UHGV virus genome: UHGV-1789659
Direction: 5' to 3' (one strand)
Length of the DNA stretch: 47,750 nt
From: a virus
The notes beneath the pieces were generated by a model. It was not told where the DNA came from. It worked only from the letters and a program-made list of their open reading frames with translations, and made no database searches. This document shows positions 23,449 to 35,428 of the stretch, piece by piece; the stretch's first letter is position 1; the number at the start of each line of letters is the position of its first letter. The translations under genes and the position numbers were made by a program.

Positions 23449-23465
23449 ACAAGGATTTTTTGAAC

Positions 23466-26400
23466 ATGGAACAGTTCAAGAAGAAAAAGTTACCGCTGTT
23501 TATTGCAGGTGCGGGTGGTAAAAAAAGCAGCAAAAGCTCCAGCCGTACACCGGTTGAAGCCGACGATACCGTAAATTCTCGTGCAATGGCCGCTATCCTC
23601 GATCTTCTTGGGGAAGGTGTAATTGGCGGCTTGGTAAATGGCGCAAGATCTATTTTTATCGACGATCTGCCGATTGTAAATGAAGACGGTTCCTCCAACT
23701 TCAGCGGAATCACATGGGATTTTCGCGACGGTTCGCAAGACCAGACTCCAATGTCTGGCTTTGATTTCGTTGAAACGCCTAAATCCGTCAATATCCAGTT
23801 AAAAAAAACACATTATGTAACGGTTTCAATCGATAACGATGAAGCTGATCGGGTTCGTGTCATCATGAAGTTTCCTTCTTTGCGAAGCATAGATAAAAAA
23901 ACTGGTGACACGAACGGCACAACCGTTGAGTACAAGTTCCAGATAGCAAATGGCGACTCAACATTTGTAGATGTGGGCGCAGAAGGTGAAAAAAGCGTTG
24001 GCATTAAGCTAACAGCAAAAAAGACAGGTGTTTATTACCGTAGCTATGAGCTGAAGCTGCCTAAGCCTGGACGCGCGTACAAGGTTCGTGTAGTCCGTAT
24101 TACCGATGATAACAGCAGCCAGTATCTCTATAACGATACATGGGTGGACTCAATAGGTGAGATTGTAGATACACCGATGAACTACCCAAACTCTGTGCTG
24201 GTGGGTCTGAAGGTTAATTCTGAGCAGTTTGGTAGCACCATGCCATCTCGTTCGTATTTGGTACGTGGATTAAAAATTCGCGTGCCGTCAAACTACAACG
24301 AGGCCAGCAACACTTATGATGGTGTATGGGATGGCACTTTTAAGCTGTTGTCTTCTTCAAACCCCGCGTGGATTCTCTTTGATTTGCTTACCAATGCTCG
24401 ATATGGCCTTGGTCAGTATGTGTCGGAATCTATGATTGACCTCGGCCAGCTATACCAGATCGGTCGATATTGTGACGAAGAGGTTGATGATGGCTTTGGT
24501 GGTAAAGAGAAACGCTTTGCAATCAATACGCAGATCACCAGTCGACAGGACGCATACCGATTAATTCAGGATATTGCCGGTGCATTCCGCGGTATGGTGT
24601 TTTGGGCTGGTGGCATGGTTAACATCATGCAGGATAGCCCATCAGATCCGGTAATGATGTTTACCAACTCCAACGTCAAAGATGGATTGTTTACCTATAA
24701 AGGTTCTGCGCGTAAAGATCGCCCATCCGTTGCGCTCGTAACCTACAACAACAAGGAGGACGGTTATAAGCAAAACATCGAGTACGTTGAAGATCAGGAC
24801 GCAATGCGCCGTTATGGTGAGCGTAAAACAGAAGTCGTAGCATTTGGATGTACAAGCCGAGGCCAGGCTCACCGAGTTGGTTTGTGGCTTTTGTATACCG
24901 CCAGAATGGAGTCGGATGTAATTACATTTACTGCCGGCTTAGACGCCTCATTTCTGATGCCCGGTGAAACCGTTCTGATTCAGAACAAATATCGTGCAGG
25001 TAAACGTAACTCCGGTCGAATTGTGGAGTTTACCAAAAACAGCATCACTCTCGATGCGCCTGTGTCGTTAGCTAAAAGCGGCAGCTTTATTCGGATATTG
25101 AATCAGGAAGGCAAAATCGTTGAACGCGATGTTCTTGAAACTGGCGAAAACGTAACAAAGGTTACGTTTTCAAAAGCTCTGTCGTCAGCGGAAACGCCTG
25201 TTTTGAACGGTGTCTGGACAATTACAGAACCAGATCTCGAACCTATGCGCGTTCGCATCGTTAACATCGCGCAGGGGGAAACGCCGGGTAGCTTTGACAT
25301 CACCGCTGTTGAAAACAATCCGTCTAAATATGAGGCGATCGACAATGGTGCAACGCTTATCCCGCAGAATACGACGGTATTGGACCCGACTTACTCCAAG
25401 CCGTCTAATTTGCAAATCACTGAAGGGACTTACCTCTCAAGCCCGGGCAACCTGTCGGTAAAACTGACTGCAACATGGGAAGGGAAATCTCCAGAGTATT
25501 GGATCAGTTGGCGACGTTCTGATGAAAACAATGTATCGAACTGGCAATCGGCGCGTGTAACCGAAGAGCAATACGAAATCGTTAATGTCGCGGAGAATGG
25601 ACGCTACGACTTCCAGCTGTATGCGGTTTCATTCAACGGTAAAAAAACAGAGATTATCAGTACCGTTTATCAGGTGTTGGGCACAATGACACCGCCGGAT
25701 GCCCCAACGTCATTAACGGCCGTTGGAGACTATCGTAATGTGATACTGAATTGGGTTAATCCAGATTCGGTAGACCTTGATCACATTAATGTTTACGCAT
25801 CCCAGACCAACAATCTGGATACGGCGAAACTGATCGCAGAGTCTGCAAGCACCACCTTGACACATGCTGGTCTTGGGGATAGCGAAACGTGGTATTACTG
25901 GGTTCGAGCATCGAACAAGCGCGGCATGTTAAGTCCTCCGAACTCAAACTTGGGTACAGAGGCGACAACTCGCGATGTACTGTCGTTCCTGACTGGCAAA
26001 ATTACATCTTCCGAGCTTGGTCAGGCTCTGCTTGAGGACATCAACAGCAAAGCCTCTCAAGAAGCAGTTGACGAGTTAAATGAGCATATTAACCAGAGCG
26101 TCGAATCTTTGGAGGGGGCGGTAAACGACGTTAAGGAAGATATAGCTGAATTAGATAAGCAGTTCAGCGATAACCTCGCGGATTTTGAAATAAAATTCAA
26201 CGAGCGTAGCGATGCTTTGGAGAGCGCGCAAACCGAGCTTAAAGGTGAGGTTTCGGCAACGATCGACAAGGTCAATGAAGCGTTTGAAAAAATTGATGCT
26301 ACTGATGCTGCAATTGTTGAAATCGAAAACACCGTATCTGAACACGATAAAGCTCTCGCTAATACAGTCGAGGCAATAAAGGCTGCAAGAGACGAAGCGG

Positions 26401-28193
26401 CGGCTCTTATTGCTAAGGAAAGCGAGGCTCGTGTTGAAGGCGATGCTGCAAACGCTAAACAACTGGAAGTGTTGCAGTCAATGGTAGAGGAAAGCTCCGC
26501 TGCCGTTGAAGAAATGAAAAAGACGGTTGCAGAGGTCGATCGTGCAAGTGCAGAGCTGACTACGAACATTGAGGCGTTGGCCAAAACAAATATTGACCTG
26601 GCTCTTCGTCAAGATGAAGACCAGCACAAGCAGATGGTCAATAACGCGAAGATCGCAACAACACAGAAAACCTTTGCTGATGATATGTCTGCAATGGCCA
26701 CGAAGGTTGAGGAAATTCGCGTAGAAATTGGCGAAGACATTAAGGCCAGTATTCTGGAAGAGTCCACCGCTCGTGCCGATGGCGATGAAGCGTTGGCAAA
26801 GCGTGTCACTCAGCTGCAATCTAAGTTTGAAGGAGATATCAGCGCGGCGATTAGTACAGAGCAGGAGGCTCGTACATCTGCCGATGAAGCTCTGACGACA
26901 CAGATCACTCAGCTTGAGTCGAAAGTAAGCAACGATATCGTCGCAGCTATTAAGGAAGAGCAAGAAGCCCGAGCAACGGAAGATTCGGCTCTGGCAAGCC
27001 AGATCACCCAACTTCAGGCAAAGGTTGATGATGATATTTCTGCTGCAATACGTAGTGAGCAGGAGGCTCGAGCAAGCGGGGACTCTGCGTTAGCCAAACA
27101 AATAAACCAGCTTCAGTCAAAGGTTGACGGTGATATATCCGCTGCCATCACTCAGGAGCAGGAGGCCAGGGCAAGTGCTGACCAGGCTCTCTCACGAGAA
27201 ATTAACAGCCTGCGAGCACAGACCGGAACTGATATTGCCGCAGCGGTTGCTGTAGAGACAAAGGCAAGGACTGATGCCGATAGTGCATTGTCCACTCAGA
27301 TTACGTCTCTTACAGCAAAAGCTAATGATCTCGAGGCATCTCTTGCCAGAGAAACAACGGCTCGTGCAGATGGTGATACCGCTTTAACAAAAGAGGTTTC
27401 AAGTTTAAAAGCACAGACTGCGAAAGATATTAGTGCGGCCGTTGCAGTTGAAACGAAGGCTCGAACTGATGCTGACTCGGCGTTGTCATCTCAGATCACC
27501 AAGCTGACCTCTCAATATAAAGAGGATATTAAAGCGGCTGTAGCAACCGAAACGAAAACGCGTACAGAGCAAGATGCGGCACTGGCGACTCAAATCACAA
27601 ACTTAGAGTCTCAAACAGCAGCCAACATTTCTGCGGCGGTCGCAACTGAAACGACAGCGAGAACGCAGGCAGATAATGCTCTAAGTGGGCGAATCGATAC
27701 TCTGAAAGCAGAGGTGGATGGAAATACCGCGACAATTCAACAGCAGGCAACAGCCATTGCTGACACCAACAAAAAAGTCTCAACCGCGTGGACGTTGAAA
27801 ATGGAGACTTCAACGAGCGGAGGGCAGAAGTATGTTGCTGGTATTGCGCTTGGTATCGACACCACTGGCCTTTCTCAGTTTTTGGTGCAGGCGGACAGAT
27901 TTGGTTTGGTCAACTCTGTTAACGGGAAGATCACCACACCATTTGTTATCGAAAACAGCATCGCCTATATGAATGGTGCGTATATCAAGGATGGCACAAT
28001 CACCAATGCAAAGGTAGGCGATCTGCAATCGACCAATTTTGTTAGCGGTAGATCTGGATGGCGATTCGGCAAAAATGGAACGCTTGAGATCAACGGTAAT
28101 AGCGGCGGCAATGGGCGATTGGTCATAAATGGTCAGCGGATTGACGTTTATGACGATAACAACGTCCTCCGAGTGAGAATTGGCCTTCTGTGA
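23466..28193 (+). CDS. central tail fibre / host specificity protein J-like, with a long coiled-coil repeat insertion
   Basis: N-terminal 600 aa align by eye to lambda J (YPNSVLVGLKVNSEQFGS..., RVPSNYN...WDGTF, FGCTSRGQAHRVGLWLL); FN3-like segment; about ten tandem 33-aa repeats; ATG at 23466. Confidence 0.85.
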   Translation: MEQFKKKKLPLFIAGAGGKKSSKSSSRTPVEADDTVNSRAMAAILDLLGEGVIGGLVNGARSIFIDDLPIVNEDGSSNFSGITWDFRDGSQDQTPMSGFDFVETPKSVNIQLKKTHYVTVSIDNDEADRVRVIMKFPSLRSIDKKTGDTNGTTVEYKFQIANGDSTFVDVGAEGEKSVGIKLTAKKTGVYYRSYELKLPKPGRAYKVRVVRITDDNSSQYLYNDTWVDSIGEIVDTPMNYPNSVLVGLKVNSEQFGSTMPSRSYLVRGLKIRVPSNYNEASNTYDGVWDGTFKLLSSSNPAWILFDLLTNARYGLGQYVSESMIDLGQLYQIGRYCDEEVDDGFGGKEKRFAINTQITSRQDAYRLIQDIAGAFRGMVFWAGGMVNIMQDSPSDPVMMFTNSNVKDGLFTYKGSARKDRPSVALVTYNNKEDGYKQNIEYVEDQDAMRRYGERKTEVVAFGCTSRGQAHRVGLWLLYTARMESDVITFTAGLDASFLMPGETVLIQNKYRAGKRNSGRIVEFTKNSITLDAPVSLAKSGSFIRILNQEGKIVERDVLETGENVTKVTFSKALSSAETPVLNGVWTITEPDLEPMRVRIVNIAQGETPGSFDITAVENNPSKYEAIDNGATLIPQNTTVLDPTYSKPSNLQITEGTYLSSPGNLSVKLTATWEGKSPEYWISWRRSDENNVSNWQSARVTEEQYEIVNVAENGRYDFQLYAVSFNGKKTEIISTVYQVLGTMTPPDAPTSLTAVGDYRNVILNWVNPDSVDLDHINVYASQTNNLDTAKLIAESASTTLTHAGLGDSETWYYWVRASNKRGMLSPPNSNLGTEATTRDVLSFLTGKITSSELGQALLEDINSKASQEAVDELNEHINQSVESLEGAVNDVKEDIAELDKQFSDNLADFEIKFNERSDALESAQTELKGEVSATIDKVNEAFEKIDATDAAIVEIENTVSEHDKALANTVEAIKAARDEAAALIAKESEARVEGDAANAKQLEVLQSMVEESSAAVEEMKKTVAEVDRASAELTTNIEALAKTNIDLALRQDEDQHKQMVNNAKIATTQKTFADDMSAMATKVEEIRVEIGEDIKASILEESTARADGDEALAKRVTQLQSKFEGDISAAISTEQEARTSADEALTTQITQLESKVSNDIVAAIKEEQEARATEDSALASQITQLQAKVDDDISAAIRSEQEARASGDSALAKQINQLQSKVDGDISAAITQEQEARASADQALSREINSLRAQTGTDIAAAVAVETKARTDADSALSTQITSLTAKANDLEASLARETTARADGDTALTKEVSSLKAQTAKDISAAVAVETKARTDADSALSSQITKLTSQYKEDIKAAVATETKTRTEQDAALATQITNLESQTAANISAAVATETTARTQADNALSGRIDTLKAEVDGNTATIQQQATAIADTNKKVSTAWTLKMETSTSGGQKYVAGIALGIDTTGLSQFLVQADRFGLVNSVNGKITTPFVIENSIAYMNGAYIKDGTITNAKVGDLQSTNFVSGRSGWRFGKNGTLEINGNSGGNGRLVINGQRIDVYDDNNVLRVRIGLL

Positions 28194-28285: not shown

Positions 28286-31200
28286 ATGTGGTACAGGGAA
28301 GGTACTATCACATTTACACAGGGTAGCAATACTCTGGTTGGTGTTGGAACAGCCTGGAACGTAACAGCTAATGGTGTGTTGCCGGGCATGATCGTCATTG
28401 GTCCCGACAATAAGCTGTATGAGATCAAGCGCGTAACAAGCGATACGAATATTGTTCTCTCAGAACCTTATACCGGCGAAACTCAGTCTGAAGTTCCGTG
28501 CCGAATCATTACGACCTATGAAGGCGACTTAACACAGTTTAGCGCGCGCTTTACTGCGCTAATGTCGCGTATGTCGGCTGATTCCAAGTCCATGCGCAGT
28601 TGGTTGACTGCTCTGGATGAGGTGACAATCGAGCGTGAAGACGGTACAGAAGTGACCGTTAAGCCGCTAATGCAGATCGTCAACGAGCACAACGAAAACG
28701 TTGAGTGGTATAAAAATAACACCGACGCGATAGACGCTGCTGGCGACAAAGCTCGTGAGGCGGCGGCCAGTGCTGCCGCAGCAGCAGAAAGCGCCAATAC
28801 CGCTGGAGAAAAAGCCTCTCAAGCGTCTCAAAGTGCATCCGCTGCGGCTTCCTCACAAAGTGCTGCAAGTGCGAGTGCAACTGCTGCGAAAAAATCTGAA
28901 ACGAACGCAGAAGCCGCAAAAGAAGCGGCAGCAGAATCAGCGTCTGTAGCATCGACCAAAGCATCGGAGGCTGCAACATCTGCGTCCAGTGCCTCTGCAT
29001 CTAAGGATGCAGCCAAAGCATCAGAGACTAACGCTTCATCGAGTGCAAACGCGGCGGCATCATCGGCAACAGAAGCTGCAAATTCGTCTAAGGCAGCAAA
29101 AACGTCAGAGACAAACGCAAAAGCATCTGAAAAGGCAGCCGAACAGAGTGCATCGTCTGCAAACAGTTCGAAATCTGCGGCAGAAGCGTCAGCCAGCGCA
29201 GCCTCAGCAAGTGCGGATAGTGCTTCATCGAGTGCAACTGCGGCAGGAAGAGCTGCGGAAAGCGCGTCTTCATCCGCGACAACAGCTACCACAAAAGCGA
29301 CAGAGGCGACGAGTCAGGCTACAGCTGCTAAAAATTCAGCATCGGCAGCAAAAACCTCTGAAACAAATGCAAAGGCCTCAGAAGACAATGCTGCTTCCTC
29401 TAAGGCGGCAGCTGCTGAATCTGCAAGTTCTGCGTCTGCATCAGCCACCTCGGCATCCGCTTCAAAAGATGAGGCGACCAAGCAGGCATCAGCAGCGAAG
29501 GGTAGTGCTTCAACGGCATCCACAAAGGCAACAGAGGCGGCAGGCAGTGCGACGGCTGCATCTCAGAGCAAAACTGCTGCCGAATCTGCTGCGACTCGTG
29601 CAGAAGCTGCTGCTGATCGTGCTGAAGAGATTGCCGGTGCAGTTGCGATGGAAGACGCAAGCCTTACAACTAAAGGTGTTGTGAAACTTAGTAGTGCGAC
29701 AGATAGCACCAGTGAATCACTGGCTGCAACTCCAAAGGCAGTTAAAGCTGCGAATGACAATGCGAATAGCCGATTGGCGAAGAACCAGAATGGTGCTGAT
29801 ATACCAGGTAAGGATACCTTCACGAAAAATATTGGCGCTGGTCGAGCATTTGGAGGCTCTGTAAGCACAACAGCAGGAAACTGGACTACGGCACAGTTTG
29901 TCGAATGGTTGGACTCTCAAGGGGCCTTTAATCATCCGTACTGGATGTGTAAAGGCTCATGGTCGTATGGCAACAACAAAATCATTACTGATACTGGTTG
30001 TGGCGATATTCATCTTGCCGGGGCAGTAATTGAGGTAATGGGGATAAAGTCCGCAATGACGATCCGCGTTACCACACCAACAACATCTAGCGGTGGTGGT
30101 ACTGCTAACGCTCAATTTACTTATATTAACCACGGGACAGATTATTCTCCAGGCTGGCGACGAGACTACAATACAAAATACAAACCTACGCCATCGGATA
30201 TAGGTGCATTATCAACATCAGGAGGGACGGTTTCAGGTCCGTTGTCTGTTACTGGTGGGTTAACTGGTTCATTGAATGGCAATGCGAGTACCGCCACGAA
30301 ATTGCAGACTGCAAGAACTATCGGCGGCGTGGCCTTCGATGGATCTGCGAACATAAATTTGCCTGGTGTAAACACGGCAGGTAATCAGAGCACCACTGGT
30401 AATGCCGCAACCGCTACAAAACTTCAAACGGCAAGAACGATTGGTGGCGTTTCATTTAACGGAACTGCCAACATCGACTTGCCCGGAGTTAACAAAGCTG
30501 GCAACCAAAGCACCACAGGTAATGCTGCTACAGCTACTAAATTGCAGACAGCAAGAACCATCGGTGGTGTTAGCTTCGATGGCACTGCGAATATTAATTT
30601 GCCTGGTGTTAATGCTGCCGGTAATCAGAACACTACCGGTAACGCGGCTACAGCGACCAAGTTGCAAACTGCGAGAACTATTAACGGGGTGTCGTTTAAC
30701 GGCTCTGCGAATATTTCGATACCAACAATTACGTCCAGAGGACGCGTTACTGCGCTCACAGGCACAACGCAAGGCGCTACTACTGGATTGCAGATGTACG
30801 AGGCATATAACAACGGCTATCCTTCGACTTACGGGAATGTGCTTCATCTTAAGGGGGCAACAGCCGTTGGTGAAGGCGAGTTGTTCATAGGTTGGAGCGG
30901 TACAAGTGGCGCTCATGCACCTGTACATGTACGTTCGCGACGAGATACTGATACAGCCAGTTGGTCAGAGTGGGCGCAAGTTTATACGTCCAAAGACTCA
31001 ATTCCAGGTGTCAATGCCACCGGTAATCAGAACACTACTGGCAATGCAGCATCAGCAACGAAGTTGCAAACTGCCAGAACAATTGGAGGTGTATCGTTTA
31101 ATGGTACCGCCAATATTAACTTGCCGGGCGTCAATATAGCGGGTAATCAGAATACGACTGGTAACGCTGCTTCAGCCACGAAGTTACAAACGGCTCGTAC

Positions 31201-31813
31201 TATTGGTGGTGTTAGTTTTAACGGTACAGCCAATATTAACTTACCTGGTGTGAATACGACCGGTAATCAGAACACTACTGGTAATGCTGCAACCGCCACA
31301 AAATTGCAGACAGCAAGGAAAATTGCTGGTGTGGCGTTTGATGGCTCTGCCGATATAACTTTGACTGCGGCTAACCTTAATGCTTATACGAAAACAGAGG
31401 TAACAAACCTTCTCAGTTCCTATGTGAAGAGTAGTTCTCTTCCAAGCATGACTGTGCGAACTTCCTCTGTTTCTGGTGGGGATATGGGCATGAGTTTGTC
31501 CACATTCATTAGCCACCTTAAATCAAATGGGGCATTTAGCAAAAGTTATTGGATTGGCTTTGGCGATGCTATGGGATTCAATGCTGGCAGTATCAACAAT
31601 ATAACGGGATTTGGTGCTGTAGAATTAGCAGAATCCATAATCGAAGTTTTTAATCTACCGAATGGTGATTATACAATTCGTTTAACGACGTCACACAAAG
31701 CTGACTACGGTGGGATTACAAACGCAATCCTCGTTTATCACTACCGCAGTAATAGAAACCCGACAGGTCAATGGCTTAAATTTGCCGGTACTCTTGGGGC
31801 TACAAACAACTGA
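28286..31813 (+). CDS. side tail fibre protein (Stf-like) with Ala/Ser-rich region and tail-fibre repeats
   Basis: AAKTSETNAKAS-type low-complexity region as in lambda Stf (recalled); eight copies of a roughly 40-aa repeat NQ.TTGNAATATKLQTARTIGGV.F.G.ANI.LPGVN. Confidence 0.8.
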   Translation: MWYREGTITFTQGSNTLVGVGTAWNVTANGVLPGMIVIGPDNKLYEIKRVTSDTNIVLSEPYTGETQSEVPCRIITTYEGDLTQFSARFTALMSRMSADSKSMRSWLTALDEVTIEREDGTEVTVKPLMQIVNEHNENVEWYKNNTDAIDAAGDKAREAAASAAAAAESANTAGEKASQASQSASAAASSQSAASASATAAKKSETNAEAAKEAAAESASVASTKASEAATSASSASASKDAAKASETNASSSANAAASSATEAANSSKAAKTSETNAKASEKAAEQSASSANSSKSAAEASASAASASADSASSSATAAGRAAESASSSATTATTKATEATSQATAAKNSASAAKTSETNAKASEDNAASSKAAAAESASSASASATSASASKDEATKQASAAKGSASTASTKATEAAGSATAASQSKTAAESAATRAEAAADRAEEIAGAVAMEDASLTTKGVVKLSSATDSTSESLAATPKAVKAANDNANSRLAKNQNGADIPGKDTFTKNIGAGRAFGGSVSTTAGNWTTAQFVEWLDSQGAFNHPYWMCKGSWSYGNNKIITDTGCGDIHLAGAVIEVMGIKSAMTIRVTTPTTSSGGGTANAQFTYINHGTDYSPGWRRDYNTKYKPTPSDIGALSTSGGTVSGPLSVTGGLTGSLNGNASTATKLQTARTIGGVAFDGSANINLPGVNTAGNQSTTGNAATATKLQTARTIGGVSFNGTANIDLPGVNKAGNQSTTGNAATATKLQTARTIGGVSFDGTANINLPGVNAAGNQNTTGNAATATKLQTARTINGVSFNGSANISIPTITSRGRVTALTGTTQGATTGLQMYEAYNNGYPSTYGNVLHLKGATAVGEGELFIGWSGTSGAHAPVHVRSRRDTDTASWSEWAQVYTSKDSIPGVNATGNQNTTGNAASATKLQTARTIGGVSFNGTANINLPGVNIAGNQNTTGNAASATKLQTARTIGGVSFNGTANINLPGVNTTGNQNTTGNAATATKLQTARKIAGVAFDGSADITLTAANLNAYTKTEVTNLLSSYVKSSSLPSMTVRTSSVSGGDMGMSLSTFISHLKSNGAFSKSYWIGFGDAMGFNAGSINNITGFGAVELAESIIEVFNLPNGDYTIRLTTSHKADYGGITNAILVYHYRSNRNPTGQWLKFAGTLGATNN

Positions 31814-31933
31814 TTTAGGGATTATTTATATGGCTGTGTGGTTTAAAAATGCGATCTCACAGCCGCAATCATAGGGATATATTTGTGAGTTACCTGATAC
31901 GAATATGAACAGCCGTTAAACGGTATATGTGTT

Positions 31934-31954
31934 GATAGGTAAGTGCATACCTAT
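31934..31954 (+). promoter_or_regulatory. GATAGGTAAGTGCATACCTAT conserved motif
   Basis: GATAAGTA-family imperfect palindrome upstream of the lysis cassette. Confidence 0.4.
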
Positions 31955-32016
31955 AATTGAAAGGAGAAGTGTGATATAAATCCGCCATCCCGATTTGACT
32001 TTTCACGGAGGAAAAC

Positions 32017-32340
32017 ATGTCGAACGAGATGGCGGGCGTTACAACAGAGCAAGTTGAGCGTATTGCCGCGATCGTTGCTCGGGAGGTTGTTGGCAAATTA
32101 GGTAAAGAGCTACGTGAAGAAATTGGCCAGGAGGTCAATGATCAGCTGAAAACCTACTTTGGTGATATGACCCCGGCGCAACATAGTATTCAACACTCTA
32201 ATTTGGACAAACTCCTTAATCGGTTAGATTCCATCTCCAGTGGGTTCTTTGGCGGCATTGTTTCTAAAATAACGTCGTTCATTATTACTGCACTGCTTTT
32301 GGGATTAGCCGCGTATGGCGTAAAAAATGGACTGCAATAA
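32017..32340 (+). CDS. putative holin-like membrane protein (single C-terminal TM helix)
   Basis: 107-aa ORF with strong RBS (GGAGGAAAAC) directly upstream of the lysis genes; C-terminal hydrophobic helix ITSFIITALLLGLAAYGV. Confidence 0.35.
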   Translation: MSNEMAGVTTEQVERIAAIVAREVVGKLGKELREEIGQEVNDQLKTYFGDMTPAQHSIQHSNLDKLLNRLDSISSGFFGGIVSKITSFIITALLLGLAAYGVKNGLQ

Positions 32341-32353
32341 CAGGAGATCAAGG

Positions 32354-33046
32354 ATGAAGACTCCGAGAGGCATTCGTAATAATAACCCCGGTAATCTTGA
32401 TAAAGGATCACCGTGGCAAGGTCTGGTTGCGAATCCAGACGAACCGCGCTTTTGCACGTTTAAAGACCCTGTTTGGGGGATTCGTGCGCTGGCGGTGACT
32501 CTAATTACCTACCACGACAAACGTCGCGCAAAAGACGGCTCAAGTATCGATACCATTCGTGAAGTTATTGAACGTTGGGCACCGCCGAATGAAAACAACA
32601 CTGACGCCTACATTAATGAGGTGTCTAAAGCCGTTGGTGTAACCGCAGACATGATCATCGATCTGCATGATTACGACATCCTTAGACCTTTGGTTGAGGC
32701 AATCATTCGCCACGAGAATGGTCGAGGTCCACTAAAAACGCTGAACACCTGGTATGCGGCAGAAGTTATTGAGGAAGGTCTGCGTCGAGCTGGCGTCGTT
32801 AAGCCGGTGAAAACCGTGAAGGCTGTTCCTGTAACTAAAGAAACCGCAGGCGCAACTGTCACAGCAGGTATTGGTCTGGCGCAGCTTGCCGATGTTATGC
32901 CGCAGGTTTCCGCTGCTATGGATAAAGCACAAGGTCATATCTCTAGCGGGGATACAGTACGCATCATCTTCGGTATTGCCACTATTGTTGTGGCAGGATT
33001 CATTGCCTGGTCGCAGGTAAGAAAACACCAGAAAGGGATGGTCTAA
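32354..33046 (+). CDS. putative endolysin / cell-wall-active protein with C-terminal TM anchor (function uncertain)
   Basis: 230 aa from ATG 32354 (RBS CAGGAG); position between holin-like and spanin genes; conserved-looking GIRNNNPGNL box; C-terminal hydrophobic helix. No catalytic motif recognised by eye. Confidence 0.35.
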   Translation: MKTPRGIRNNNPGNLDKGSPWQGLVANPDEPRFCTFKDPVWGIRALAVTLITYHDKRRAKDGSSIDTIREVIERWAPPNENNTDAYINEVSKAVGVTADMIIDLHDYDILRPLVEAIIRHENGRGPLKTLNTWYAAEVIEEGLRRAGVVKPVKTVKAVPVTKETAGATVTAGIGLAQLADVMPQVSAAMDKAQGHISSGDTVRIIFGIATIVVAGFIAWSQVRKHQKGMV

Positions 33047-33261
33047 TATGCTAGGCAGCCTGATGATAAAGCTAAAAGTTGCTTTATTCATTGCCTGGTC
33101 GCAGGTAAGAAAACACCAGAAAGGGATGGTCTAATATGCTAGGCAGCCTGATGATAAAGCTAAAAGTTGCTTTATTCATTGCCTGGTCGCAGGTAAGAAA
33201 ACACCAGAAAGGGATGGTCTAATATGCTAGGCAGCCTGATGACAAAGCTAAAAGTTGCTTT
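32998..33261. repeat. 88-bp tandem repeat, three copies (two identical, third slightly diverged) across the endolysin/spanin junction
   Basis: Unit ATTCATTGCCTGGTCGCAGGTAAGAAAACACCAGAAAGGGATGGTCTAATATGCTAGGCAGCCTGATGATAAAGCTAAAAGTTGCTTT repeats at 32998, 33086 and 33174. Confidence 0.9.
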
Positions 33262-33475
33262 GATTACGCTGGCTGCCGTTCTTTTCGTTCTGGTCGGCGC
33301 TTACACGATGGGTGGGAATGCAGCACGACGAGCAATGGAAGAGAAGGCAAAACAGGAAGACAGAAAACGACTTCAAAACACAGTGGAAGTGGTGAATGAG
33401 ACGAGCAATAAAATACGTCAGAAAGATGCTTCTGCCGTTCATCGTGAGTTGTATGATAAGTGGGTGCGTCATTAA
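33224..33475 (+). CDS. i-spanin (Rz-like)
   Basis: N-terminal TM helix (ALITLAAVLFVLVGAYTMGG) followed by a charged segment; an embedded lipoprotein ORF overlaps the 3-prime end. Confidence 0.65.
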   Translation: MLGSLMTKLKVALITLAAVLFVLVGAYTMGGNAARRAMEEKAKQEDRKRLQNTVEVVNETSNKIRQKDASAVHRELYDKWVRH

Positions 33476-33611
33476 ACCACAAACCGCCAGCGTATTGTTC
33501 TGCGATGGAGCTGAGCCTATCTATATCAGCAATAATGATGTGATGACCGAAGAAACCGAACGCCAAATCCTTTTTCACAATACGATGGGAGAGAGAGTTT
33601 GCGGTTGGTGA
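33426..33611 (+). CDS. o-spanin (Rz1-like lipoprotein), overlapping the i-spanin in another frame
   Basis: Signal peptide with lipobox MLLPFIVSCMISG-C; in-frame ATG at 33426 inside the ORF-track ORF 33396..33611. Confidence 0.6.
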   Translation: MLLPFIVSCMISGCVIKPQTASVLFCDGAEPIYISNNDVMTEETERQILFHNTMGERVCGW

Positions 33612-33642: not shown

Positions 33643-34164
33643 TTATTCTTCGAACAATTTTTCGATAGATTTTGTAGGATAGAACAAAGAACGCTCGTTG
33701 TTACCAACCAGCTGGATAAAGCCTAAACTTTTATAAAACGCCTTGGCTTTGTCATTTAACGCCTCAACGAAAAGTCCATGAATGCCTACAGCAAGAGATG
33801 CATTGTACACAACCCGCATTGCATGTGTTACAAGCATTGAGCCAAATCCTTGACCTTGAAGGGACTTGTCCAAAGCCAGCCTACCCAAAGTAACACTTGG
33901 AACATTCCGATAAGGAACCTTCTTTTGCTGGCTTCTTGAAGGTAAGGACTCCTTTTCAAAGCAGCTGCCTGACAAAGTGTAATACCCTAACACTTTTGGT
34001 CTGTCTTCTTTAGTGCAAAGCACATAAGCGCGAAGAATTTTTCCCTCATGCTGCCTTTTTAAGTGGTTGGTTAAAAAGGCATTTAGTGATTCTTCACCGC
34101 AATCAAAACCATTCAAATCATAATCTTTCTCTCCAGAGAAAATTTCTATCTTTATATTATCCAC
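33643..34164 (-). CDS. GNAT-family acetyltransferase toxin (TacT/KacT/AtaT-type)
   Basis: GNAT motif A QGQGFGSMLV; about 170 aa; immediately downstream of a DUF1778-type antitoxin ORF on the same strand; GTG start. Confidence 0.75.
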   Translation of the reverse strand: MDNIKIEIFSGEKDYDLNGFDCGEESLNAFLTNHLKRQHEGKILRAYVLCTKEDRPKVLGYYTLSGSCFEKESLPSRSQQKKVPYRNVPSVTLGRLALDKSLQGQGFGSMLVTHAMRVVYNASLAVGIHGLFVEALNDKAKAFYKSLGFIQLVGNNERSLFYPTKSIEKLFEE

Positions 34165-34171
34165 GAGTAAA

Positions 34172-34441
34172 CTACTCCATGCTTTTCAGACGATCAGCAG
34201 CTCGTTTCAGCTTGTCGTTCGGTGCCGGAGGATTGCTTATAGCGTCCATAACCAGATTCCAGGATTCTTCATTCAGAACTAGTCTACGGTGTTGCTCTAT
34301 AACTTTCACGGCACGTTCAGATGCACTGCTAACCATAAACTGAGTAATGCTCTGGTTAGACATTGCGGCAGCTTCCTCGATGATGCTTTTATCGTCATCG
34401 GTTAATCTCAAATCGATGCGCTGCTTTTTTAGTGCTGACAT
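34172..34441 (-). CDS. DUF1778-type RHH antitoxin (TacA/KacA-like)
   Basis: Start set at MSALKKQRIDLRLTDDDKSI after an AGGAGG RBS (plus-strand CCTCCT at 34446-34451); the N-terminal RIDLRL plus helical region is typical of DUF1778 antitoxins paired with GNAT toxins. Confidence 0.7.
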   Translation of the reverse strand: MSALKKQRIDLRLTDDDKSIIEEAAAMSNQSITQFMVSSASERAVKVIEQHRRLVLNEESWNLVMDAISNPPAPNDKLKRAADRLKSME

Positions 34442-34710
34442 GTATTCCTCCTGATGGCCGTGATGTAGGAAGGCCATCAATCTCCTCTGTTCAAACTGAG
34501 TTTTCGACTCAAAAATTACTTTAAAAGGCTATAGCCCATTACGTGTGCATTATCAAATTGTGTACGGCATATCACCGTACTTGTAATATAGAGGTCATTG
34601 TTACTTTTTTCAACAGACAAATACAAGCTATGATTGCCAATTGTTAATCACAACCTACCATTTAACCTTTACACCGCAGCCGTAGGCATTTAGGCTATAT
34701 CACATATAAG

Positions 34711-34759: not shown

Positions 34760-35428
34760 ATGACCAAGATCTTTGTGGTTGGCGGCACAAAGGGCGGGCC
34801 TGGCAAATCCACCGTTGCCCAGCAAATTGCCGTTTGCCTGAAAGTCAAAAAGAAGAAGAAGGTTTATATCACTGATATAGATATTCAGCGCACGACAACA
34901 AGCTGGTGTGAAGACCGTCGGCAGAACGAAGACCTTGAGCTGATTCCTTTTGCATACGTTCAGGATGACATCATTAAGCACCTAAAATCGCTTCAGGGTA
35001 GAGCTGAGTTTGTCGTGGTAGATGCTGGTGGCTTTGACTCCGAAATTCAGCGACAAGCGATGCTGATGGCCGACGTTATCATTATCCCGCTGCGTCCTAA
35101 GCGTCGTGATTTGAAATCTCTGCGTGACATCGATCCTATTATCGACAATGTTCGTAATGTAAACAATAAAGTGAAGGTCCGCGCTGTCATGAACCAGTGC
35201 CCGGCTTTGCCATCACAAGTGTCTCGCATTCTGGCGGCTAAAGAGATTGTTGAGACGTTTGGCATCGAGTCTGCGCCAGTCAATCTATATAACCGCAACG
35301 TCTATGATGATGCGGAAGAGTCTGGTCGTTCTATCTTTGAAATGACCGGTAGCGAGCGCGACAAAAAGGCGGAAGCCGAGTTTGAAGAATTTGTAGATTA
35401 TCTGTTGAGTCTGGAGGAAGAAGAATAA
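34760..35428 (+). CDS. parA: ParA-family partition ATPase (small, type Ib-like)
   Basis: Deviant Walker A GGTKGGPGKST at the N-terminus; 222 aa; followed by a coupled small DNA-binding protein gene. Confidence 0.85.
   Translation: MTKIFVVGGTKGGPGKSTVAQQIAVCLKVKKKKKVYITDIDIQRTTTSWCEDRRQNEDLELIPFAYVQDDIIKHLKSLQGRAEFVVVDAGGFDSEIQRQAMLMADVIIIPLRPKRRDLKSLRDIDPIIDNVRNVNNKVKVRAVMNQCPALPSQVSRILAAKEIVETFGIESAPVNLYNRNVYDDAEESGRSIFEMTGSERDKKAEAEFEEFVDYLLSLEEEE

Follow-up and report, generated by a model that had tools for sequence, protein, structure and literature searches.

The side tail fibre of phage lambda, Stf, is encoded after the J gene of the tail module, has an Ala/Ser-rich shaft and a Phage_fiber_2 motif, and ends in a His-rich tip that is assembled by Tfa. 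The Mu fibre S' (gp52, PDB 8JU3) contains an internal knob, beyond which the fibre runs on to a tip assembled by the U' chaperone from the adjoining gene. In the myovirus P1 an invertible segment switches between alternative ends of the fibre, and U/U' chaperones accompany them. Other fibres have no separate chaperone gene and carry a self-cleaving C-terminal S74 domain (PF13884, 'chaperone of endosialidase'), for which T5 pb1 and the K1F endosialidase are the models. In the Salmonella phage-plasmid SSU5 the fibre gp21 belongs to a tip cluster with S74 and is followed by the gp38-like adhesin gp22, two morons and cor. The most distal domain of a fibre is usually its receptor-binding site, and gp57A of T4 shows that a fibre chaperone may be a small protein, encoded away from its fibre gene and easily overlooked. 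Proteins of the DUF4376 family are proven fibre chaperones in Alteromonas phages (V22 gp27, A5 gp9) (PMC7289586, PMC10579305).

We have analysed a fibre gene of the virus genome UHGV-1789659. The window, that is, the whole stretch of 47,750 nucleotides under study, is by its gene order an SSU5-like siphovirus phage-plasmid of E. coli. The gene (28286-31813, + strand, ATG start, 1175 aa) matches PHROG tail-fibre families with E = 0 and is 98.7% identical in nucleotides and 99.1% in protein to the 'phage tail protein' of a sister plasmid, pMRY16-002_2. An earlier note on this DNA had called it an Stf-like side fibre that is followed directly by the lysis cassette and not by a Tfa-like gene, and had proposed that the last 150 aa may be an intramolecular chaperone or a novel tip domain. 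We find that the protein terminates in a diverged copy of the Mu S'-type knob, that no recognisable type of chaperone accompanies this tip, and that the other tips of the same phage-plasmid family each bring their own.

The gene is like lambda Stf in its position after J in a lambda-like tail module, in its Ala/Ser-rich shaft and in a homologous shaft end with the Phage_fiber_2 motif, but it has another N-terminal anchor, a distal half taken from other modules, and neither a His-rich tip nor tfa. As in the S fibres of P1 and P7 there are 40-aa repeats around an inserted domain, and this segment, from nt 2231 of the fibre open reading frame (ORF), is about 80% identical to the P1 S gene at the nucleotide level; unlike in P1, no invertase or inverted alternative end was seen beside the window fibre gene. 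Anchor, shaft, and knob, repeat and insert modules are held in common with SSU5 gp21, which belongs to the same phage-plasmid family, whereas the order of the modules differs. In contrast to Mu S', the diverged knob copy ends the protein, and the searches retrieved no U/U' homologue. The fibre shares with S74 fibres the lack of a separate chaperone gene but has no S74 domain. A DUF4376 ORF stands beside a window-type tip in a single locus (L089), while at E <= 0.01 neither the window nor the sister plasmid gave a DUF4376 homologue.

A diverged knob at the fibre terminus

The terminal module comprises residues 1047-1175 (129 aa; 31424-31810, + strand) and is, by alignment, a paralogue of the Mu S'-type knob: it is 34% identical over 82 aa to the internal knob of the same fibre (pairwise E 1e-11). 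The proposal of a novel C-terminal tip of 150 aa stands in so far as the terminal module has diverged; the module is shorter, and it belongs to a known knob type that is also present internally at aa 525-635 and has been solved in Mu S'. An exhaustive phmmer search over 1.84 billion representative proteins gave only seven close relatives (E < 1e-30), one of them a frameshifted fragment, and in those with an intact end the module lies 0-2 residues from the C-terminus. About 60 distant matches (roughly 30-40% identity, E down to 2e-13) carry the knob mostly at an internal position. An AlphaFold2 model built with an alignment of 39 sequences (pLDDT 82, pTM 0.79; an earlier alignment of 12 sequences had been unusable, with pLDDT 41) matches the Mu S' knob fold of 8JU3. 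The terminal copy does not share the internal position of the Mu knob, and no further connector or fibre follows it, as the protein ends there. The 8JU3-type fold has been in the PDB since 2024, and the literature mention of 8JU3 that we found is in a figure legend only.

Comparison of the window knob with the copy on a 237-kb contig gave a pN of 0.25 and a saturated pS of 0.89. Because synonymous sites are saturated at this pN, the terminal knob is old and under purifying selection, and because its identity to internal copies is nowhere above about 30% it is not a recent truncation. Copies that are 63-98% identical and sit on different backbones end at the same position. PLSDB has 73 plasmids with the tip, and among 5426 complete E. 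coli genomes 77 (1.4%) contain it, always plasmid-borne; a scan of genome contigs for the tip gave no match. Among the matches listed, tip identity between Escherichia plasmids is 93.8-99.2%, and the fibre ORF is intact in the plasmid records listed from the 77 complete genomes. Cyrano (pLF82 of strain LF82) carries the window-type tip at 94% identity at the end of a collinear fibre gene, CYRAN_21; the two fibres diverge over nt 29770-31244 and have the tip in common.

The same knob family forms the fibre terminus in further lineages as well. Three such proteins (P0087, P0084 and P0063) carry it 1-7 residues before their C-terminus; the stalk of P0087 is collagen-like (G-x-y), and P0063 stands alone as a protein of 163 aa. 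A further ORF, of 160 aa on an E. coli chromosome (P0041), consists of a piece of a Mu S'-type knob joined to a lambda-type Tfa of which only the C-terminal half is left, and looks like the scar of a deletion across a fibre-tfa junction.

The region downstream of the gene bears out the earlier note: a spacer of 203 nt (31814-32016) separates the fibre from the holin gene, and it holds no chaperone, adhesin or moron gene. On the fibre strand the spacer has no ORF of at least 50 aa except 31710-31874, which overlaps the fibre end, and a simple promoter and terminator scan of it gave nothing better than chance. Relatives with the same tip have a spacer of 191-204 nt before holin. The wider search for a Tfa that the note had called for was equally negative. 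The window, the entire 109-kb sister plasmid and a large contig with the same tip (L016) yielded no Tfa or adhesin, either to tblastn (queries: lambda Tfa, Mu U/U', P1 U/U', SSU5 adhesin) or to profile HMMs made from 9 sequences of Tfa and 13 of the adhesin, while the positive controls were recovered at E 1e-58 to 1e-78. The gp38-like adhesin (SSU5 gp22, phrog_1121) in particular gave no match in the window by profile or tblastn, with the SSU5 control scoring E 6e-58. NCBI PGAP names no tail fibre assembly protein in pMRY16-002_2. The combination by which the note would have been refuted, an adjacent Tfa-like gene with a standard Stf tip, was not encountered.

The sister plasmid has three moron genes and no chaperone between fibre and holin, namely phrog_557, phrog_425 and cor. 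The same arrangement before holin, with phrog_557 annotated as 'outer membrane protein', phrog_425 as 'membrane associated protein' and cor encoding the exclusion lipoprotein Cor, is seen in SSU5 and many relatives (comparison loci L002 36702-37805 and L017 10363-11470). The two extra post-fibre genes of pMRY16-002_2 were considered as chaperones and rejected, as they belong to the moron families phrog_557 and phrog_425 and have no Tfa domain. The genes after the L016 fibre were rejected likewise; one encodes a lipoprotein whose family is unknown, and the other is an ORF without a family.

The earlier suggestion of an intramolecular chaperone fared less well. The last 230 aa contain neither Peptidase_S74 (PF13884) nor any other Pfam domain, while in the same scan five alternative tips from sister loci score PF13884 at E 4.9e-7 to 1.4e-14. 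A C-terminal coiled coil was not found in the terminal module either.

Across the phage-plasmid family, each tip type brings its own chaperone, except the window-type tip. To survey this, 68 IMG/VR loci were fetched by the conserved anchor, complete fibres were extracted, their C-terminal 120 aa clustered, and the genes up to holin classified. Lambda-type tips are followed by a lambda-type Tfa (3 of 3), a Mu S-type tip by a U-like Tfa gene (1 of 1) and another tip by a U'-like gene (1 of 1). Five tip clusters carry S74, none of them together with Tfa; the S74 cluster of SSU5 type is also accompanied by a gp38-like adhesin gene. The window-type tip is present in seven loci besides the window. 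In each of the six whose sequence reaches that far, holin comes next, and a tip-anchored search gave the same result in 10 of 10 loci. Within this survey, SSU5-type tips combine a C-terminal S74 chaperone with the separate downstream adhesin (phrog_1121), i.e. two devices at one tip (L017 6001-10319, which is SSU5, and L035, L046, L049, L059, L063, L065, L067, L073 and L080). In L052, L059, L062, L063, L080 and L083 a DUF4376 homologue with 34% identity to the L089 ORF lies between J and fibre, about 110-680 nt upstream of the fibre start; the J-fibre gap of the window is only 92 nt.

One pair of fibres isolates the exchange. L022 and the window are 90-100% identical per 30-residue window up to residue 1046 ('...NLLSSY') and unrelated beyond, where L022 bears an S74 tip; by this alignment the pair represents a clean natural tip swap. 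The exchange falls in the neck, aa 1032-1046 (31379-31423, + strand), with the junction sequence NAYTKTEVTNLLSSY. In fibre P0007, too, an S74 tip follows this junction.

Transfer of the tip and its possible meaning

The tip module was found on four different fibre backbones. On the 237-kb IMG/VR contig (L016, 3923-8008) it occurs at 63-67% identity in a fibre with a P2-H-type N-terminus (PF12571), which keeps the repeat-insert-repeat-tip arrangement and is followed by a predicted lipoprotein of 168 aa (phrog_9559, unknown function) and not by Tfa. Genes next to this fibre have a DUF7941-type N-terminal adaptor in common. At potB, a lambda-like prophage (L092 3081-5679; L090 663-2438) has an Stf that ends with the tip, and behind it only a C-terminal stump of 33 aa is left of a lambda-type tfa. 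PGAP calls the tip-bearing stf of E. coli CV839-06 a pseudogene.

We hold with moderate confidence that the gene encodes a trimeric, mosaic side fibre whose terminal knob is a self-sufficient distal head that works without a dedicated chaperone and presents a host-contact surface. The family-specific N-terminal anchor would attach the fibre to the J-type tail tip. The terminal knob would fold and bring three chains into register unaided, needing neither a Tfa-type chaperone in trans nor an S74 chaperone in cis, and as the distal head it would offer its surface to the host. Such a self-sufficient knob would explain why no known kind of chaperone accompanies the tip. The entry of the tip into P2-H-type and lambda-type fibres brought no chaperone along, which counts in favour of this account. 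Chaperone independence, self-trimerisation and receptor binding of the terminal knob are what we infer here, by one step from 'no recognisable chaperone' to 'needs none' and another from 'distal' to 'receptor-binding'. A broader proposal, which we put forward tentatively, is that the tip may be a portable, chaperone-free, self-trimerising receptor-binding cassette that can be recombined onto SSU5-, lambda- and P2-type fibres at the 'NLLSSY' neck.

Several points weigh against a self-sufficient knob. The main caution comes from L089 (1-1130), a Qin-like chromosomal prophage by ydfJ/ydfI, in which the same tip at 86% identity is followed, with stop and start overlapping, by an ORF of DUF4376 (phrog_1141), the family that includes the proven Alteromonas phage chaperones. 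In Mu S' the knob is internal and a U'-dependent end lies beyond it, so that the fold is not known as a receptor binder. The predicted fold match of the terminal copy is not independent evidence but restates the sequence homology, since the alignment behind the model held Mu S'-type knobs. In the literature, we found no infection reported for any element with a window-type tip. Finally, one of the many hypothetical proteins of the phage-plasmid might be a small or novel chaperone, and the host, too, might provide one.

It is unlikely, in our view, that the tip depends on a helper that went unrecognised, be it encoded by the phage-plasmid, a host factor, or a DUF4376- or Tfa-type protein provided in trans by resident prophages. 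T4 gp57A would be a precedent, and most phage-plasmid genes are annotated as hypothetical. Besides the tip and DUF4376 ORF being joined in L089, DUF4376 genes are frequent on the chromosomes of E. coli: the L089 query matches 405 chromosomal places, and all but one of the listed chromosomal matches fall under a DUF4376 gene. However, the pairing of tip and DUF4376 occurs in none of the 5426 complete E. coli genomes, the L089 ORF lacks its native start (the first ~10 native codons are replaced in comparison with phiP27 L57-type relatives), and window and sister plasmid are without a DUF4376 homologue. Furthermore, sister phage-plasmids with the same backbone still carry a tip-specific Tfa or S74, so the backbone supplies no general solution, and the resident tfa of the lambda-type prophage was destroyed when the tip arrived. 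Unlikely, too, is a role of the terminal knob as nothing but a structural cap or registration domain, with host recognition residing in the internal knobs, the insert or J. The internal place of the homologous Mu S' knob speaks for such a cap, as does the low variation of the tip among the listed Escherichia plasmid matches; the central modules, which differ between fibres with the same tip (window and Cyrano, nt 29770-31244), would fit host-range variation in that region. Yet receptor binding in fibres is usually a matter of the most distal domain, and the tip, in the manner of receptor-binding modules, trades places with other tips as a cassette at one fixed junction and has spread to four backbones.

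Decay of the gene, in which the true distal tip and the chaperone gene belonging to it were lost by deletion while the element persisted mainly as a plasmid, is improbable. The knob family is usually internal, broken fibre genes do occur among relatives (the CV839-06 stf pseudogene; L026 and L028, whose fibres end inside a knob; L030, whose fibre gene is split), and the missing record of infection by an element with this tip would agree with it. Against decay stand the distance of the terminal knob from every internal copy, which is not that of a recent truncation, its common end position across backbones, the purifying selection on it, the intact ORF in the plasmid records among the matches listed, and the particles that Cyrano yields (PMC9928086). 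Least likely of all, and very improbable, is an intramolecular chaperone formed by the last ~130-150 aa and cleaved off after trimerisation. The module does occupy the C-terminal place where S74 domains sit and stands in for an S74 tip in the otherwise identical L022 fibre, but it lacks a PF13884 match where five alternative tips score, as well as a coiled coil, and its predicted fold is that of a structural knob which is retained in the mature Mu S' fibre. S74 tips would also keep a preceding tip domain after cleavage, whereas the window fibre would keep the neck alone.

The gene is annotated in many plasmids already, and every one of its modules has relatives in known fibres. What appears to be new is the use of a Mu S'-type knob as a chaperone-less terminus, and the rule in this phage-plasmid family that a tip carries its own chaperone. 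When fibres are engineered for phage therapy, tailocins and diagnostics, a frequent obstacle is that a receptor-binding tip has to be transferred along with its matching chaperone. If the account given here is true, the knob frees a long beta-structured fibre from any dedicated chaperone. The nearly isogenic fibres that differ only past residue 1046, one with a self-cleaving S74 tip and one with a chaperone-less knob, provide a clean pair for studying how trimerisation starts. The window-type tip is a common allele of SSU5-like phage-plasmids, and its receptor, once known, would help to predict their host range. Members of this phage-plasmid family can bear resistance genes: dfrA51 is present on the sister plasmid pMRY16-002_2, and such genes have been reported in SSU5-related elements (PMC9600943).

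Modular make-up of the fibre

By homology the gene is an ordinary, already annotated mosaic side tail fibre, assembled like beads on a string by recombination from anchor, shaft, Phage_fiber_2 joint, knobs, 40-aa repeats, neck and terminal knob. Differences between relatives fall at the repeats and the neck, and a motif map of 20 fibres shows six kinds of knob joined by one to five 40-aa repeats in variable order. The features that the earlier note had read from the letters, i.e. the ORF with exactly the limits given above, the Ala/Ser-rich region and the blocks of 40-aa repeats around an insert, are all present. A Pfam search with the whole 1175-aa protein gave no match, presumably because of the low-complexity region; after splitting of the protein, Phage_fiber_2 (PF03406) was recovered as the only family. 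In NCBIfam, none of the four pieces (anchor, joint-and-knob segment at aa 451-663, repeat and insert segment, tip) has a family. A word-indexed protein search returned fragments only.

The N-terminal anchor (aa 1-150; 28286-28735, + strand) is specific to the SSU5 family and 77-100% identical in 64 IMG/VR loci; the N-terminal 487 aa together are 60% identical to SSU5 gp21. No Pfam family matches the anchor. Its residues 5-78 (28286-28520) give a weak, non-significant PDB sequence match to a 'distal tail protein gp20' (23gd_B, E 0.03), which might be a hint as to how the fibre docks at the tail tip. The shaft that follows (aa 150-450; 28733-29635, + strand) is of low complexity, with 40% Ala, 24% Ser, 9% Thr, 8% Glu and 8% Lys, and its weak match to T5 pb1 (8hqz_d) is biased by composition.

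The affiliation with Stf is well founded: the gene stands directly after J, lambda Stf (orf-401) is homologous with E 5e-22, and the Phage_fiber_2 motif (aa 459-500; 29660-29785, + strand) scores E 2.4e-20 with PF03406. The lambda alignment is restricted to fibre aa 403-496 (71% identity over 94 aa). Thus the resemblance to lambda Stf that had been noted for the Ala/Ser-rich region is true homology at the shaft end and the motif behind it, and one of composition only in the remainder. Neither the orf-401 alignment nor the Pfam and Tfa searches revealed a lambda-type N-terminal domain or a His-rich, Tfa-assembled tip. The Phage_fiber_2 region also matches Mu S (5yvq) and Mu S' (8ju3) at residues 105-175.

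Next comes the internal Mu S'-type knob, 'domain A' (aa 525-635; 29858-30190, + strand), which was identified by phmmer against 8ju3_A. The best stretch pairs aa 492-668 with residues 178-354 of 8ju3_A at about 75% identity (whole-sequence E 9.8e-83). Knobs of this internal type are widespread among enterobacterial prophage fibres.

Tandem Repeats Finder (TRF) detected two arrays with a period of 120, at 30299-30678 (3.2 copies, 72% matches) and 31007-31332 (2.7 copies, 75%). Together with alignment of the units, the first translates into block 1 (aa 664-818; 30275-30739, + strand), with four 40-aa 'ATKLQTAR' units of which the fourth is degenerating; the second, together with the protein alignment, gives block 2 (aa 906-1031; 31001-31378, + strand), a leading part-unit with three 40-aa units. 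Two blocks of four had been claimed, which is right for block 1 and slightly generous for block 2. The consensus of the unit is 'GNAATATKLQTARTIGGVSFDGTANINLPGVNxxGNQxTT', and within a block the identity between units is 65-100% for the protein and 57-78% for the DNA. Our literature search found nothing on this motif. Between the blocks lies a globular domain of 87 aa (aa 819-905; 30740-31000, + strand) of the P1 S / SSU5 gp21 type, assigned by its identity to these two proteins and by PHROG tail-fibre families; it is 77% identical in protein to SSU5 gp21 residues 606-766. Repeats and insert match no Pfam family and have no PDB sequence match. A relation of the insert to the second domain of Mu S' was considered and rejected as not significant (E 0.5).

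The surrounding phage-plasmid

SSU5-like elements were recognised by the order tape measure, M, L, K, I, J, fibre and lysis cassette on a plasmid of ~100-120 kb. The window has the collinear lambda-like tail genes, followed by the fibre and the lysis cassette, and full-length matches to the fibre sit on E. coli plasmids of 108-110 kb. From the end of the tape-measure gene through J the window is 95-97% identical in nucleotides to Cyrano and collinear with it. The similarity resumes at the same level with the last fibre repeat and extends across the lysis genes and a KacT-type toxin-antitoxin pair to ParA. Cyrano was induced by ciprofloxacin and DNA-filled particles were made; siphovirus virions of the expected size were seen and attributed to it, and no indicator host was reported (PMC9928086). 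Four SSU5-like elements of E. cloacae were induced without lysogenic conversion, and the single E. coli SSU5-like element of that study was not induced (PMC9600943); the tips of these five elements were not determined.

The lysis cassette (32017-33611, + strand) is 96-97% identical in nucleotides to, and collinear with, CYRAN_22-25. As named by this collinearity, it comprises holin (32017-32340), endolysin (32327-33046) and Rz/Rz1 (33224-33611). Past it lie, named in the same way, a GNAT toxin of the KacT/TacT type with its antitoxin (33643-34480, - strand) and a ParA partition ATPase (34760-35428, + strand).

Directly upstream of the fibre, an ORF at 23460-28193 (+ strand) encodes a J-type tail tip protein of 1577 aa, annotated as 'tail host specificity protein J' in Cyrano and as 'phage tail tip fiber protein' by PGAP. 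TRF detects no repeats in the J gene at the DNA level. The C-terminal third of the protein contains a stretch of about 500 aa rich in Ala, Glu, Ser and Thr with a period of about 31 aa ('EQEARxxADxALxxQITxLxxKV..DISAAI'), and the J protein of SSU5 is about 190 aa shorter than that of the window.

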